64,000 nucleotides of DNA from Escherichia coli (lineage in GTDB: Bacteria; Pseudomonadota; Gammaproteobacteria; Enterobacterales; Enterobacteriaceae). The notes under the pieces were generated by a model that did no database searches, was not told where the DNA came from, and worked only from the letters and a program-made list of their open reading frames with translations. The DNA lies in the NCBI RefSeq assembly GCF_045037415.1, contig NZ_CP173438.1, one strand, 5' to 3'. Made by a program: the position numbers and the translations under genes. The stretch's first letter is position 1, and every line of letters begins with the position of its first letter. Below are positions 10,906 through 34,267 of this stretch, piece by piece.

Positions 10906-11232
10906 TCAAGGACGTGACGGCGTAAAGATAAATTGTCTCTTCACTCCCTGACAGGGGCGATTCTTTTCAAATCGCCATTTCGCCATGGCCTTCACCACTT
11001 CATCACGAAACAAATTATGAGGCTCTGAGCGGAGAAAAACGATCCGTGTCACAGTCCCATCAGCACCAATATCGAACTTAACCTCAACCAGCCCCTTGAT
11101 ATAATTTGCTGCAGCATATTCCGGATATCGTGGATACACCGTCACTAATTGCCGGGGCTCATCAGCTTTTTGCTGCGAGCATCCCACTGCCAGGACAGAT
11201 AACAGAAAAAGTAGTAAAAGGCGTCTTTTCAT
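10906..11232 (-). CDS. Lipoprotein with TonB C-terminal-like domain (prophage accessory gene)
   Basis: ORF 10906..11286; start at MKRRLLLLFLLSVLAVGC (lipobox AVGC) preceded by AGGA; the C-terminal region (YPRYPEYAAANYIKGLVEVKFDIGADGTVTRIVFLRSEPHNLFRDEVVKAMAKWRF) has the TonB_C-like motif pattern. Confidence 0.6.
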   Translation of the reverse strand: MKRRLLLLFLLSVLAVGCSQQKADEPRQLVTVYPRYPEYAAANYIKGLVEVKFDIGADGTVTRIVFLRSEPHNLFRDEVVKAMAKWRFEKNRPCQGVKRQFIFTPSRP

Positions 11233-11712
11233 TTTTATTCCTACGGGTCTTATTCTGACAATATATCCTGTGTTCCAGACTGCCACATCACCACATCCTG
11301 TGCCATTATCTGACTCACATTACATACATCGCATCGGGATACAGTAGTAGCACTTTCTGTAATACAGCTTCCTGTTTCTTCCACCATCGCACCGGGATAA
11401 ACCCGCGAATCATTAACGCGGTAAAAACCCGGTGTGCATCGTTTTTAATTATTCCCGCACACTCACGCAGAAGGAATTCCCCGTCGGGCTACGGTCATGG
11501 TTAATGCGGGAATACGGCGACGATACAGCGCAGCTAAAAGGGTAATGGACGGATAGACCGGTTTATTTCATTCCACAGGATTCTGAGTGTCCCCAACTTC
11601 CTCCAATAGTCTGAGCCCACCTGTGTAGTTTTAATTTTCATCAATCCATTTAACTATCGTTTAATTGTTGTCACATAGGATTCTGCCGTTTTTAACAATG
11701 CAGGATAATAAG

Positions 11713-12006
11713 ATGAAAAAAATGTTGTTTTCTGCCGCTCTGGCAATGCTTATTACAGGATGTGCTCAACAGACGTTTACTGTTGGAAACAAACCTACAG
11801 CAGTAACACCAAAGGAAACCATCACCCATCATTTCTTCGTTTCGGGAATTGGGCAGAAGAAAACTGTCGATGCAGCAAAAATTTGTGGTGGTGCAGAAAA
11901 TGTTGTTAAAACAGAAACCCAGCAAACATTCGTAAATGGATTGCTCGGTTTTATTACTTTAGGCATTTATACTCCGCTGGAAGCGCGTGTGTATTGCTCA
12001 CAATAA
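11713..12006 (+). CDS. bor: Bor outer-membrane lipoprotein (serum-resistance, Iss family)
   Basis: MKKMLFSAALAMLITGCAQQTFTVGNKPTAVTPKETITHHFFVSGIGQKKTVDAAKICGGAENVVKTETQQTFVNGLLGFITLGIYTPLEARVYCSQ matches lambda Bor; lipobox ITGC. Confidence 0.9.
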   Translation: MKKMLFSAALAMLITGCAQQTFTVGNKPTAVTPKETITHHFFVSGIGQKKTVDAAKICGGAENVVKTETQQTFVNGLLGFITLGIYTPLEARVYCSQ

Positions 12007-12037: not shown

Positions 12038-12499
12038 CTATCTGCACTGCTCATTAATATACTTCTGGGTTCCTTCCAGTTGTTTTTGCATAGTGATCAG
12101 CCTCTCTCTGAGGGTGAAATAATCCCGTTCAGCGGTGTCTGCCAGTCGGGGGGAGGCTGCATTATCCACGCCGGAGGCGGTGGTGGCTTCACGCACTGAC
12201 TGACAGACTGCTTTGATGTGCAACCGACGACGACCAGCGGCAACATCATCACGCAGAGCATCATTTTCAGCTTTCGCATCAGCTAACTCCTTCGTGTATT
12301 TTGCATCGAGCGCAGCAACATCACGCTGACGCATCTGTATGTCAGTAATTGCCGCGTTCGCCAGCGTCAGTTCTCTGGCATTTTTGTCGCGCTGGGCTTT
12401 GTAGGTAATCGCGTTATCGCGGTAATGATTAACCGCCCATGAAAGGCAGACGATGACGCAGATAACCAGAGCGGAGATAATCGCGGTTATTCTGCTCAT
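12038..12499 (-). CDS. Rz: Inner-membrane spanin Rz
   Basis: 153 aa, [51 protein letters not shown]... matches lambda Rz. Confidence 0.9.
12097..12279 (-). CDS. Rz1: Outer-membrane lipoprotein spanin Rz1, embedded in Rz in the +1 frame
   Basis: 60 aa, [60 protein letters not shown] matches lambda Rz1; lipobox and proline-rich segment. Confidence 0.85.
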
Positions 12500-12972
12500 A
12501 CCTCACTCTCTCTGAGCGTTCCGCCAGCTTCTTTGAATTTTGCAATCAGGCTGTCAGCCTTATGCTCGAACTGACCATAACCAGCGCCCGGCAGTGAAGC
12601 CCAGATATTGCTGCAACGGTCGATTGCCTGACGGATATCACCGCGATCAATCATCGGTAAAGCACCACGCTCTTTAATCTGCTGTAATGCCACTGCGTCC
12701 TGGCTTTTGGGGGAGAAGTCTTTCAAACCAAGCTGTTTACGGTAAGCATCCCACCAGCGTGAAAGAAGCTGATAACGTCCGGCGGCTGTTGATTTGAGTT
12801 TGGGGTGTAGCGTGACAAGTTTGCGAGGGTGATCGGAGTAATCAGTAAACAGTTCGCCGCCAACAATAACATCATAACCGTGGTTACGTGTCGGTTGTCG
12901 CCCGTTATCCGTTCCTTCTGACCACGCCAACATATCGAGGAAGGCTTTACGCTGAGGATTAAGATTTTGCAT
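12496..12972 (-). CDS. R: Endolysin R (lytic transglycosylase)
   Basis: 158 aa, ...[80 protein letters not shown]... matches lambda R. Confidence 0.9.
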
Positions 12973-13276
12973 TTTTCACCCCTGTCAGTCGTTCCCAGAA
13001 GTACGTCAGTGCAACCGAACCCATCGCACCACTAATCCCCGCTGTCGCGAGAATCATGTAAATACTGAATCCACTTTCGATGCTGATCAGGCCACCAATA
13101 ACACCGGTGAATCCTGATACCACTATTTGAGCCAGAGCATTTATCCAACTCCACGTTGCTTTACTCTGCTTCACATCTATCAGGTAGCGGACCAGACCGC
13201 CCCAACCTGCGATGATCAGCAAAACGAGCCAGAACGCTCCGGCAAGGCTCTCTTTTTCGTGCATATGAATAGCCAA
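12959..13276 (-). CDS. Holin, not the lambda S sequence type
   Basis: 105 aa directly upstream of R with a 14-nt overlap; hydrophobic segments (GAFWLVLLIIAGWGGLV, AQIVVSGFTGVIGGLI, IYMILATAGISGAMGSVAL); possible dual start MAIHM; differs from recalled lambda S. Confidence 0.7.
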   Translation of the reverse strand: MAIHMHEKESLAGAFWLVLLIIAGWGGLVRYLIDVKQSKATWSWINALAQIVVSGFTGVIGGLISIESGFSIYMILATAGISGAMGSVALTYFWERLTGVKNAKS

Positions 13277-13378
13277 TGTTTCGCCGCCGACAAAAGGCCG
13301 GGACGTTAAATGTCAGAAATCAGGCTCACGGGGTAATTTAACGACAAAGCACGGAGTTGATGCTCCCCGCAAGCCTGG

Positions 13379-13404
13379 AATAAAAAAGCCAGCATGTAGC
13401 TGGC
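13379..13404 (-). terminator. Rho-independent terminator (tR'-like) between the late promoter and the holin
   Basis: Minus-strand hairpin GCCAGC-TACAT-GCTGGC followed by UUUUUUAUU (plus strand aataaaaaagccagcatgtagctggc). Confidence 0.6.
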
Positions 13405-13566
13405 AACAGAGGGTTAAGCAATATCAACTCAACAGCTGAAGACACCCTGGCTGGGGTAGGTTGGAAGGCTACTCACCGTTCAGAAACAGAAAAGCCCAAG
13501 GCTTTAAACCTCGGGCTTGAATTTGGATTACTGCCAGTGCGTACAACATTGGCAAAATATCAGATT

Positions 13567-22700: not shown

Positions 22701-23652
22701 CTGCAACATTATCGCTGCTAAGCTGTTCAGCCAAGGAAACGCCCGGGCGATAATTAAACTCAACACCAAAGGTTGTATCGTGAGTGTTGCTCTGTCCTTG
22801 CTTATGCTGTGCAGAAAACTTAATCAGAGGAACTGGTGTATAAGAAATTCCCCCAGTAACTGCGTAAGGGTTTTCCTGCAGGTTATCGCTTCCAAATAAC
22901 CCGACATTTTTACCATAATATTTTTCAAACTGAATAGATGCCCCTAATTGCGGATAAGCAGGTAGCCATCCTTCAGCAGAAAAATCCCAGCCATTTGCAG
23001 GTCTTTCCAGATAATCATCAATATCACGACTGTTCTTCCAGTCAGATAGACCAAAATAGGTATTTACACCAAGCCTGAAATAATCCCTCCAGTACTCAAC
23101 CCCAAAACCTGCACGAGAGTGACTACGACTTAAATCGTAATCATAGAAAACATTCGCACCCAACATTGCGTTATCAGGAGTGAAATGACGAATCCCCAAA
23201 CCAATATTGGTCTGATTTCGGTCATCAGTACGATGTAGTGATGTCTGACTGAATAACACATAATCCTGAGTATCCAGCCATGGATATAAAAAGTCGAATG
23301 ATGAATCCTTCAAGGAAAAAGAATCATCGACATTAAGCTTGATGCGCGCATTGCCATATTGTTGCAACCAGTCGACGACCTCTTTTGTCGCCTGAGTTGA
23401 TAAAGTATTTACAGCAAAACTACTTGCATTATTATTCGCCAGGCTCTGACCTGCACTTGCTGCAAATGAGGCCACTTTATTTGCATGCTCATCGCTGGCA
23501 TAAATTTGCGTAACATCTTTATTACCAGATGATGCAAAACTGTTTGCTGGGATCAAAGAAAGAGAAACTGGAGATAATATCTGGGTAACAATTACCGACC
23601 ATGTAATCGCGCCAGATGCAGTTTTTTTTAACTTTTTATTCACAGTGGTCAT
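19744..23652 (-). CDS. Intimin/invasin-family inverse autotransporter adhesin with multiple bacterial Ig-like (Big) domains
   Basis: 1302 aa; signal-peptide-like N-terminus; region ...LYPWLDTQDYVLFSQTSLHRTDDRNQTNIGLGIRHF...GFGVEYWRDYFRLGVNTYFG...ERPANGWDFSAEGWLPAYPQLGASIQFEKYYG...YDFVERNNNIVLEYKKK closely parallels the recalled intimin beta-barrel domain; then a long Thr/Ser/Val-rich repetitive passenger; AT-rich upstream region. Confidence 0.85.
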   Translation of the reverse strand: MTTVNKKLKKTASGAITWSVIVTQILSPVSLSLIPANSFASSGNKDVTQIYASDEHANKVASFAASAGQSLANNNASSFAVNTLSTQATKEVVDWLQQYGNARIKLNVDDSFSLKDSSFDFLYPWLDTQDYVLFSQTSLHRTDDRNQTNIGLGIRHFTPDNAMLGANVFYDYDLSRSHSRAGFGVEYWRDYFRLGVNTYFGLSDWKNSRDIDDYLERPANGWDFSAEGWLPAYPQLGASIQFEKYYGKNVGLFGSDNLQENPYAVTGGISYTPVPLIKFSAQHKQGQSNTHDTTFGVEFNYRPGVSLAEQLSSDNVAVMREVQNRRYDFVERNNNIVLEYKKKHALKISLPESVQGEGESIIPVTLTINNASGGIKSVQWNDSAFTAAGGKISGNGTSWQITLPAYKSEGVNSWNVGATVQDNRGNVSNYAVMNISVTDSGVSTADSSFTLDGDSSPTISADSQSTYPIVLSLKDSNGKALTGLADDIEMSVEFTADSNSARQRETVTAPSLGAVEEISAGVYRSVLTAGSQAGTVRVTAKVQGKTFTLNIKQAAITDSDVSTADSSFTLDGDSSPTISADSQSTYPIVLSLKDSNGKALTGLADDIEMSVEFTADSNSARQRETVTAPSLGAVEEISAGVYRSVLAAGSQAGTVRVTAKVQGKTFTLSIKQTATTEPDSEVSAVLTAAPAEQVVGYNINLQLAVKDSQGNAITGDNTLSFYALNQAEGVEFGTVTEKDGVYSATVTSKRAGKITIGVKSDSHDFSGVKKEITFIEDRQQVTFSQFEASQNNALADGKQRNMVTVSLADRFGNVVPGYAVTLSLPAGITQVGGEHAVSTDENGNAIFALISSTPGSYVITAHAGSQMSTELTVTFASNMTGASLSLTPESSSLISNIPANGKDAAVLDVQLTNTNASVNGQKIQLITSSEGLSVPTNIVTDSTGHVSVPLTTVKAGEYTVTARVTDGSHSVESGSVKLTFVPDVASAELNMSVSKQEIVADGSENATVNIQLVDANNNAFTGEVDLTITPSTGASLTSSNLQLDAHGQATTQFTASKSGQYTIQAEYVLDGKRITASQNIDAVTDVKGAVLEITSSASSAVVSDTNNLVFTLLLKSKSGEALSGRALNVKTSGPSKYGALVVDKTTVTTDENGQATVSVHGRTVGSYKLTATLNELGSDVSAVKSFSLYADDANGVLTLTKDPGYETNDGSPVGIYARFVDHFGNPLSGTVEFSAGSEDSPDSQRVKMEPATVTLHWTGNAASEFSTYESGYHWIKAKITNSKNTYEKTIRTYVVKLPEKDS
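21628..22350. repeat. Near-perfect tandem direct duplication (2 x 357 bp) inside the adhesin gene, encoding a duplicated 119-aa Ig-like domain
   Basis: gcttaatactgagagtaaatgtttttccctgaacttttgcagttacacg... recurs 357 bp later with a few substitutions; protein shows two almost identical blocks (...STADSSFTLDGDSSPTISADSQSTYPIVLSLKDSNGKALTGLADDIEMSVEFTADSNSARQRETVTAPSLGAVEEISAGVYRSVL...); plus-strand shadow ORFs 21904..22119 and 22261..22446 translate identically. Confidence 0.9.
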
Positions 23653-31534: not shown

Positions 31535-31771
31535 ATGTCTCGACTAATCACTTTACAGGACTGGGCTAAAGAAGAATTTGGGGACTTAGCACCAAGTGAG
31601 CGAGTTCTGAAAAAATACGCGCAAGGGAAAATGATGGCCCCACCCGCTATAAAAGTTGGTCGCTACTGGATGATTGACCGAAATTCCCGTTTTGTAGGAA
31701 CGCTTGCAGAACCGCAACTCCCAATAAACGCAAACCCAAAACTCCAAAGGATAATCGCTGATGGCTGCTAG
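31535..31771 (+). CDS. xis: Excisionase (Xis)
   Basis: 78 aa immediately upstream of and overlapping int; preceded by gaggagg; MSRLITLQDWAKEEFGDLAPSERVLKKYAQGKMMAPPAIKVGRYWMIDRNSRF... resembles lambdoid excisionases. Confidence 0.75.
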   Translation: MSRLITLQDWAKEEFGDLAPSERVLKKYAQGKMMAPPAIKVGRYWMIDRNSRFVGTLAEPQLPINANPKLQRIIADGC

Positions 31772-32903
31772 ACCCCGATCTCACAAAATCTCTATACCCA
31801 ATTTATATTGCAAATTAGATAAGCGAACCGGAAAGGTATATTGGCAATACAAACATCCACTATCCGGTCGTTTTCATAGCTTAGGAACTGATGAGAATGA
31901 AGCAAAACAAGTTGCTACTGAAGCAAATACCATTATTGCTGAACAACGTACCAGACAAATATTAAGCGTCAATGAGCGTCTGGAAAGAATGAAAGGCAGG
32001 CGCTCAGACATTACGGTGACAGAATGGCTTGATAAATATATTTCTATCCAAGAGGACAGGCTGCAACATAATGAACTAAGACCCAACTCCTATCGGCAAA
32101 AAGGCAAACCCATTCGTCTTTTCCGTGAGCATTGTGGAATGCAACACCTCAAGGATATTACCGCACTTGATATTGCCGAAATAATTGATGCTGTAAAGGC
32201 TGAAGGTCATAACAGGATGGCGCAAGTCGTGAGAATGGTGTTGATCGACGTCTTCAAAGAAGCACAACACGCAGGACATGTTCCGCCAGGATTTAACCCA
32301 GCGCAGGCAACAAAACAACCGCGAAATCGAGTAAACCGCCAAAGATTGTCACTGCCCGAATGGCAGGCAATATTTGACAGCGTAAGCAGACGGCAGCCCT
32401 ATTTAAAATGCGGCATGCTACTTGCTCTTGTTACTGGACAACGTTTAGGCGATATCTGCAATTTGAAATTCTCTGATATATGGGACGACATGTTGCACAT
32501 TACTCAGGAAAAAACCGGTTCAAAACTTGCTATTCCGCTTAACCTGAAATGCGATGCTCTGAATATTACCCTTCGTGAAGTTATATCTCAGTGCAGGGAT
32601 GCTGTTGTTAGTAAATATCTGGTCCATTACCGTCACACTACCTCTCAAGCAAACAGAGGAGACCAGGTTTCTGCAAATACTCTGACAACGGCTTTTAAAA
32701 AGGCCCGGGAAAAATGTGGCATAAAATGGGAGCAAGGAACTGCGCCCACATTTCATGAGCAGCGATCTCTGTCAGAACGGTTATATCGGGAACAGGGTCT
32801 GGATACGCAAAAGTTGTTAGGCCATAAATCCAGAAAAATGACCGACCGATACAATGATGATCGTGGTAAAGACTGGATTATCGTAGATATCAAAACAGCA
32901 TAG
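31761..32903 (+). CDS. int: Tyrosine-family site-specific integrase (icd-targeting, phage 21/e14-like)
   Basis: 380 aa; C-terminal catalytic region (...HEQRSLSERLY...LGHKSRKMTDRY...) typical of lambda-family integrases; last prophage gene before icd. Confidence 0.9.
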   Translation: MAARPRSHKISIPNLYCKLDKRTGKVYWQYKHPLSGRFHSLGTDENEAKQVATEANTIIAEQRTRQILSVNERLERMKGRRSDITVTEWLDKYISIQEDRLQHNELRPNSYRQKGKPIRLFREHCGMQHLKDITALDIAEIIDAVKAEGHNRMAQVVRMVLIDVFKEAQHAGHVPPGFNPAQATKQPRNRVNRQRLSLPEWQAIFDSVSRRQPYLKCGMLLALVTGQRLGDICNLKFSDIWDDMLHITQEKTGSKLAIPLNLKCDALNITLREVISQCRDAVVSKYLVHYRHTTSQANRGDQVSANTLTTAFKKAREKCGIKWEQGTAPTFHEQRSLSERLYREQGLDTQKLLGHKSRKMTDRYNDDRGKDWIIVDIKTA

Positions 32904-33016: not shown

Positions 33017-34267
33017 TTACATATTCTTGATGATCGCGTCACCAAACTCTGAACATTTCAGCAGTTTAGCGCCTTCCATCAGACGTTCGAAGTCATAGGT
33101 TACGGTCTTGGCATTGATTGCGCCTTCCATACCTTTAACAATCAGGTCAGCCGCTTCAGTCCAACCCATATGGCGCAGCATCATCTCAGCGGAGAGAATA
33201 ATAGAGCCTGGGTTTACTTTGTCCTGTCCGGCATATTTCGGCGCAGTACCGTGGGTGGCTTCAAACAGGGCGCATTCGTCACCGATGTTTGCGCCAGGGG
33301 CGATACCGATACCACCAACCTGCGCTGCCAGGGCGTCAGAAATGTAGTCACCGTTCAGGTTCATACAGGCGATAACATCATATTCAGCCGGACGCAGCAG
33401 GATCTGTTGCAGGAATGCATCAGCAATCACGTCTTTAATGACGATCTCTTTGCCGGTATTCGGGTTTTTAACTTTCAGCCACGGGCCGCCGTCGATCAGT
33501 TCACCGCCAAATTCTTCACGCGCCAGTTGGTAGCCCCAGTCTTTAAACGCGCCTTCGGTGAACTTCATGATGTTGCCTTTGTGCACCAGGGTCACAGAGT
33601 CACGATCGTTAGCAATTGCGTATTCGATCGCTGCACGAACCAGACGTTTGGTGCCTTCTTCCGAACACGGCTTAATACCGATACCGCAATGTTCCGGGAA
33701 GCGAATTTTCTTCACGCCCATCTCTTCACGCAGGAATTTAATCACTTTCTCAGCGTCGGCAGAGTCTGCTTTCCATTCGATACCCGCATAAATGTCTTCC
33801 GAGTTTTCACGGAAGATAACCATATCGGTCAGTTCAGGGTGTTTAACCGGGCTTGGAGTGCCCTGATAGTAACGTACCGGACGCAGGCAGATGTAGAGAT
33901 CCAGTTCCTGGCGCAGGGCAACGTTCAGAGAGCGAATACCGCCACCAACCGGAGTGGTCAGCGGGCCTTTAATGGCAACGCGATATTCACGAATCAGATC
34001 AAGGGTTTCAGCAGGCAACCAGACGTCCTGACCATAAACCTGTGTGGATTTTTCACCGGTGTAAATTTCCATCCAGGAGATTTTACGCTCGCCTTTATAG
34101 GCTTTCTCGACTGCAGCGTCGACCACTTTCAGCATGGCTGGGGTTACATCTACACCGATTCCATCACCTTCAATGTAAGGGATAATCGGATTTTCAGGAA
34201 CGTTGAGTTTGCCGTTTTGCAGGGTGATCTTCTTGCCTTGTGCCGGAACAACTACTTTACTTTCCAT
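33017..34267 (-). CDS. icd: NADP-dependent isocitrate dehydrogenase
   Basis: 416 aa, [73 protein letters not shown]... matches E. coli Icd; known integration target of phage 21/e14-type integrases. Confidence 0.97.

Follow-up and report, generated by a model that had tools for sequence, protein, structure and literature searches.

A LydA/ST64T-gp13-family holin gene preceding a lambda-type endolysin and spanin block in an Escherichia coli prophage

Holin identity sets lysis timing. The lysis cassette of a lambdoid prophage in Escherichia coli (NCBI RefSeq assembly GCF_045037415.1, contig NZ_CP173438.1) opens with a holin gene that a first-pass annotation had described as a non-lambda module grafted onto lambda-type R, Rz and Rz1 genes, with a possible dual start. 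The locus raises the question of whether this gene is a diverged lambda S or a holin of another family, and of whether its two in-frame start codons still give an antiholin and a holin. The window, i.e. the whole stretch of 64,000 nt that was analysed, provides all coordinates used here; its lysis cassette lies on the minus strand and was read from the list of open reading frames (ORFs) and from the sequence. The best explanation overall, held here to be very probable, is that the gene encodes a lambdoid-prophage holin of the LydA/ST64T-gp13 family, a self-contained mosaic module in which the dual-start motif has decayed.

The lysis cassette and its mosaic borders

The ORF list and the sequence place the holin ORF (12959-13276, minus strand) between the Q gene and R-Rz-Rz1-bor. 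It comprises 105 codons from a TTG at 13276-13274 and 101 residues from the in-frame ATG at 13264-13262. This shorter form (12959..13264, minus strand) is identical to WP_000544528.1 and matches PF16083 and PHROG 785. The stop codon occupies 12961-12959 and R starts at 12972, giving the 14-nt overlap that was first noticed. The endolysin and spanins had also been called lambda-type, and the protein comparisons bear this out. R, a lytic transglycosylase of 158 aa (12496..12972, minus strand), is 93.7% identical to lambda R, and its best match in a PDB sequence search is the lambda lysozyme 1AM7 (E 6e-100). The i-spanin Rz (12038..12499, minus strand; PF03245) is 97.4% identical to its lambda counterpart, and the o-spanin lipoprotein Rz1 (12097..12279, minus strand; PF06085), embedded in Rz in the +1 frame, 98.3%. 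The lambda-like block ends at the bor/iss serum-resistance lipoprotein gene (11713..12006, plus strand), whose product is 92.8% identical to lambda Bor.

Upstream of the holin gene the picture is non-lambda, in the Q gene as well as in the late-promoter region. The late antiterminator Q (229 aa; 13586..14275, minus strand) belongs to PF06323 and is 17% identical to lambda Q, so that the lambda-like block is limited to R-Rz/Rz1-bor. Between Q and the holin ORF, which begins at 13276, lies a non-coding gap of about 310 nt on the same strand. Scanning for consensus motifs only, a promoter-like site (13602-13574, minus strand) and two hairpins that resemble terminators and have T runs (13518-13492 and 13404-13388, minus strand) were found here. 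Together (13388..13602) they have the layout expected of a lambdoid late promoter followed by tR'.

The border between the two parts is sharp. In a BLASTN search with window 14400-11500, homology to lambda DNA (92%) runs from 12967 down to about 11659, and homology to the ST64T holin gene (76%) stops at 12966. The module swap first proposed is borne out. The direction and the rarity implied by the word 'grafted' are not supported, given the non-lambda Q and the frequency of the junction. An 801-nt query (window 13500-12700) was compared with 5,426 complete E. coli genomes, a match being counted from 80% of the query upwards, and the holin-R junction was found in 808 of them (~15%), many at 100%. 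Carriers include ST131-type strains such as JJ1887, with 100% identity over the 801 nt, and O157:H7 strains (99.6%). Every one of the 25 E. coli genomes among the matches listed shows 100% identity across the junction region, and in 692 records the identity is at least 99%. A combination that roughly every seventh complete E. coli genome contains unchanged points to ordinary phage mosaicism.

The position of the border is itself recurrent. About 1,750 further E. coli genomes matched the query in part, and most of the partial matches sampled start at query positions 537-546 (one at 528), i.e. at window 12964-12955, at or just past the holin stop codon. This suggests that the boundary between holin and endolysin genes is a recurrent exchange point; the overlap and the downstream mosaic junction, as defined by the onset of lambda-like DNA and by these starts, span 12955..12972 (minus strand). 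An upstream junction can be placed at 13295..13309 (minus strand), 20-33 nt before the holin start, where homology sets in in some E. coli genomes. Three E. coli genomes encode the same holin protein after different Q genes and inserts and before different Rz alleles. IMG/VR contains at least 589 stretches that encode relatives of the holin, and in the best 80 of them the encoded protein is 100% identical to it. In 79 of these 80 loci the holin is followed by a lambda-type R of the full 158 aa, the R ORF of the remaining one being cut to 43 aa. The R proteins of the 79 loci fall into 45 distinct variants, those listed being 90-100% identical to R of the window.

Across the wider family, four endolysin types follow PF16083 holins: lambda R in loci of the window type, an M15_4-like peptidase in ST64T, a PF00959 lysozyme in Klebsiella RAH1 and Serratia Eta, and a GH108 plus PG_binding_3 protein in Escherichia phage 733R5. 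The holin gene is best pictured as a self-contained module of about 340 bp with the start codon of whichever endolysin gene comes next in its 3' end. The 3' ends of two holin genes were also compared. The P22 gene 13 (PF05106) ends in ...GATGCAAATCAGCAGTAACGG (552-571 of the P22 stretch) and the RAH1 holin gene (PF16083) in ...GATGCAAATCAGTAATAACGG (2293-2306 of the RAH1 stretch), both at the start of a PF00959 lysozyme gene. The two ends, GATGCAAATCAGCAGTAACGG and GATGCAAATCAGTAATAACGG, are nearly alike although the P22 and RAH1 holin families are unrelated, which suggests that the holin-lysozyme overlap travels with the endolysin gene or serves as a recombination linker.

Family and predicted membrane architecture of the holin

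The protein matches the Pfam family PF16083 (Phage_holin_3_3, 'LydA holin phage, holin superfamily III') over model positions 2-78 of 78, with E 8.2e-22 and a score of 77.6 bits (gathering cutoff 28.4). A second match is to PHROG 785, 'holin' (E 5.5e-40, 4-104 of 107 covered). These two matches argue against a chance ORF. NCBIfam returned no model for the holin, with sub-threshold chance matches only. According to a Pfam scan, PF16083 also takes in ST64T gp13, the holin of Serratia phage Eta and both LydA and LydC of P1. A tblastn search of 50,697 phage records matched 35, with identities of 100% for PhiR47_2, 85-88% for Klebsiella phages or prophages, 73-74% for gene 13 of ST64T, L, PS3 and ST160, and 66% for Eta. 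By sequence, the holin family is that of LydA and ST64T gp13 (PF16083, PHROG 785), distinct from lambda S.

Identical proteins are recorded under two names. WP_000544528.1, the ATG-started product annotated by PGAP in E. coli prophages, is a 'phage holin family protein', and Escherichia phage PhiR47_2 (PV340567; recorded host E. coli C) encodes a 'holin protein S'. The Q-holin-R-Rz-bor block of this phage is 99.93% identical to that of the window across 2,901 nt (BLASTN, window 14400-11500). The two do not differ in substance; R of the PhiR47_2 record has a 1-nt deletion, so that this record alone is no proof of a working cassette. The deletion falls in a run of five C's (window 12713) and splits the gene into two annotated 'lysozyme R' CDSs, R of the window being intact; a sequencing error in the homopolymer could account for the deletion in the record.

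More distant relatives differ in their surroundings. Gene 13 of the Salmonella phages ST64T, L, PS3 and ST160 resembles the window gene in its full-length identity (73-74%), its 105 codons, its 14-nt overlap with the next gene and its PF16083 match. Unlike the window gene, it has a canonical ATG-A-K-R-ATG dual start behind a GGAGG Shine-Dalgarno (SD) sequence and is followed by a 132-aa, M15_4-like endolysin gene and by other spanin genes. In phage L, the mutation 13-am43 is a nonsense codon at Gln50 of the holin gene 13 (PMC8022706). This Gln50 is conserved in the window protein. The family namesake, LydA, is annotated as the holin of P1 and shares PF16083, as LydC does, with the window holin; a BLASTP comparison gave E 0.001 and 26% identity over 77 aa, which is weak, yet significant for a single comparison. 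LydA differs in scoring about 30 bits on PF16083 against 78 and in its longer C-terminal tail. According to the annotation, its gene lies apart from that of the P1 endolysin, and LydA has a separate antagonist, LydB, as its partner. In TCDB, P1 LydA represents the LydA holin family. In the literature, WP_000544528 is not mentioned and no experiment on the exact window protein was found.

The three hydrophobic segments of the first reading were recovered in two ways. Uncharged runs of 20-27 residues occupy positions 10-29, 40-66 and 68-94 (105-aa numbering), and AlphaFold2 predicts helices at 2-32, 40-63 and 68-94 (101-aa numbering; mean pLDDT 79.5). Both agree with the three transmembrane domains of class I holins. 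Three Lys/Arg residues lie in the loop 30-39, three more in the C-terminal tail (95-105), and the N-terminus is net negative. By the positive-inside rule only, this charge pattern would fit an N-out/C-in topology of the class I layout. A further trait of class I holins, a soluble and signal-less endolysin partner, is found in R with its 93.7% identity to the lambda protein. Foldseek against BFVD returned LydA-type and other phage holins as top matches, none of them at E<=0.001, which is supportive only. A PDB sequence search gave no solved relative of the holin.

Could the gene nevertheless be a diverged lambda S or P22 gene 13, with no module swap? The proteins are of similar length (101-105 aa against 105-107 aa) and share three hydrophobic segments, the same position and the same overlap architecture. 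The Pfam names are close too, 'holin superfamily III' for PF16083 and Phage_holin_3_1 for PF05106, the family to which lambda S and P22 gp13 are both assigned at about 1e-30. Against this stand BLASTP with lambda S (E=9, no similarity), a global identity of 18%, and a Pfam scan of the window holin that at E<=0.1 gave PF16083 alone, with no PF05106 or other holin family. In hhalign, a 7-sequence profile of the window holin's family aligned with lambda S and P22 gp13 at 0.65% probability. Lambda DNA homology, moreover, breaks off abruptly at the R start. A diverged lambda S, the finding that would have overturned the first-pass annotation, was looked for against both lambda S and P22 gp13 and is ruled out within the reach of BLASTP, Pfam and hhalign; such a descent is barely credible, and the separate family first proposed stands. 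A pinholin of the S21 type, causing membrane depolarisation only, would likewise be a small protein of the membrane, encoded by the first gene of a lysis cassette. S21-type pinholins combine two transmembrane domains with a signal-anchor-release (SAR) endolysin. The window protein has three predicted helices, not two, and PF16083 as its only Pfam match at the cutoff above. As read from its sequence, R has a hydrophilic N-terminus without a SAR segment, and such a soluble transglycosylase requires large holes. Helix count and endolysin type thus rule this candidate out, and a pinholin is extremely improbable.

The LydA/ST64T-gp13-family holin would then be an inner-membrane protein of about 11 kDa with three predicted transmembrane helices. 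From what is known of lambdoid lysis, it would be transcribed with R, Rz and Rz1 from a Q-dependent late promoter. Its family and cassette suggest that it would accumulate in the membrane and then trigger to form holes, which should be large enough to let the folded, signal-less R transglycosylase through. The spanins would then disrupt the outer membrane, as in other lambdoid phages. The most likely functional model is that of lambda S (S105/S107) and P22 gp13. Like the window holin, these have three transmembrane segments and a charged C-terminal tail, and their genes come first in the lysis cassette of the late operon and overlap the start of the endolysin gene with their 3' ends. The upstream hairpin and dual-start layout of the window holin's family also resembles theirs. 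They differ in that the sequence relationship is undetectable and that the dual start is degenerate in the window allele.

A degenerate dual-start motif

In ST64T and Klebsiella RAH1 the gene starts with ATG-GCx-AAA-CGT-ATG, i.e. M-A-K-R-M, in Escherichia phage 733R5 with M-A-K-H-M and in Serratia Eta with M-K-R-M, where the annotation reads 'possible dual start motif'. The SD sequence before the upstream start is GGAGG in ST64T, RAH1 and 733R5, and GGGGG in Eta. In the window, the four extra in-frame codons TTG-GCT-ATT-CAT (13265..13276, minus strand) stand in exact register with the relatives' ATG-GCx-AAA-CGT. Compared with the latter, ATG is replaced by TTG, K and R by I and H, and GGAGG by GGCGG within a weak SD-like GGCGGCG (13288-13282, minus strand). 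The predicted SD/anti-SD pairing amounts to -5.0 kcal/mol against -9.5 to -10.8 in the relatives. The window sequence TTG-A-I-H-ATG thus departs from the canonical dual-start motif, which is frequent, not obligatory, in class I holins. The TTG follows the weak SD at a distance of 6 nt; the ATG is 18 nt from this sole SD-like element, which leaves the true start codon uncertain.

Variation at the upstream codon was found among close relatives. Of the best 80 IMG/VR loci, which encode the identical protein, 79 have TTG at this position and one has GTG. In the 99% identical allele of E. coli SCU-122 it is GCG, which is not a start codon. PGAP sets the protein start at the ATG. In lambda S107, it is the additional positive charge of Lys2 that makes the protein an inhibitor.

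If the TTG at 13276 and the ATG at 13264 formed a working dual start, a 105-aa antiholin and a 101-aa holin would be made, comparable with lambda S107 and S105. Both codons fall exactly at M1 and M5 of the relatives' M-A-K-R-M, TTG and GTG are both able to initiate, the weak SD is suitably placed 6 nt ahead of the TTG, and the annotation of PhiR47_2 calls the TTG form 'holin/antiholin component S'. Yet the M-A-I-H extension brings no Lys or Arg, the SD is weakened, the sister allele of SCU-122 has no start codon at this position and PGAP picks the ATG. With the motif decayed and no positive charge added by the extension, a working antiholin/holin pair is unlikely in the window allele. The whole gene might instead be decaying in a defective prophage, as the degraded look of its dual-start and SD region and the presence of an IS66-family element and cargo genes in the prophage could suggest. 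This is very unlikely, as the ORF is intact, the protein is 100% conserved in the best 80 of the at least 589 IMG/VR relatives, the junction is invariant in the 25 listed genomes and reaches 99% identity or more in 692 records, and an identical gene occurs in a deposited phage genome. Because of this identity with PhiR47_2 and of the junction's presence in 808 of 5,426 genomes, the window holin gene is likely functional.

From the comparison with the relatives it was concluded that TTG-A-I-H-ATG is a degenerate remnant of their antiholin start M-A-K-R-M, and the window allele would most likely give one functional kind of product. In the possible dual start first read as MAIHM, the first 'M' is a TTG, not an ATG, in a motif that is such a remnant. 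It is possible, though only tentatively proposed, that the E. coli allele has lost the antiholin start that the Klebsiella, Salmonella and Serratia relatives keep in canonical form. In that case this holin, so common among prophages, would be a naturally occurring 'holin-only' form, expressed weakly or from an atypical start, and the timing of lysis would depart from the lambda scheme of the textbooks.

A 5-bp hairpin, CCGGC-CUUUU-GUCGG (13301-13287, minus strand), overlaps the SD-like element with its 3' arm and is similar to those that precede S in lambda (sdi) and gene 13 in P22. Klebsiella RAH1 (CCGAU...AUCGG) and ST64T (CCG...CGG) each have a hairpin in the corresponding place. When the initiation region was folded and compared with shuffled sequences, no extra stability was detected (z -0.21 for the window, 0.03 for RAH1), so that the hairpin is reported as an observation only. 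An Rfam scan of the whole window gave no match.

Prophage setting and earlier knowledge

The holin, its family and its pairing with R are already known from RefSeq (WP_000544528.1), Pfam and PHROGs and a deposited phage. PF16083 holins are documented in the lambdoid phages ST64T, L and PS3, and that the holins and endolysins of lambdoid phages assort independently is published and textbook matter. The holin-R pairing is a common standing polymorphism, and the locus has little significance beyond correct annotation. The sole modestly useful point for lysis specialists is the degenerate dual-start motif of the E. coli allele.

The prophage appears to be integrated at the icd site, where a lambda-type integrase gene (31761-32903, plus strand) directly adjoins the isocitrate dehydrogenase gene icd (33017-34267, minus strand), its chromosomal neighbour. 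The window continues with chromosomal DNA from about 33000 to 64000. As cargo, the prophage carries between its replication gene P and its nin region the gene of an inverse autotransporter of the intimin/invasin type (1302 aa; 19744-23652, minus strand) with a PF11924 beta-domain and Big_1/Invasin_D3 repeats. An IS66-family transposase gene (537 aa) with accessory ORFs (17182-19598, minus strand) and, beside this element, an alpha/beta-hydrolase gene (BD-FAE/Abhydrolase_3; 16124-17155, plus strand) lie in the early-right region. PhiR47_2 covers 73% of window 1-25000, and part of the IS66/hydrolase region may be missing from it. Downstream of bor, an ORF of 126 aa (10906-11286, minus strand) encodes a TonB C-terminal domain (PF03544). 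Relatives have it annotated as 'TonB family protein' or as a partial tonB-like protein of prophage CP-933N. Situated between the lysis genes and the terminase genes, it is apparently a moron.
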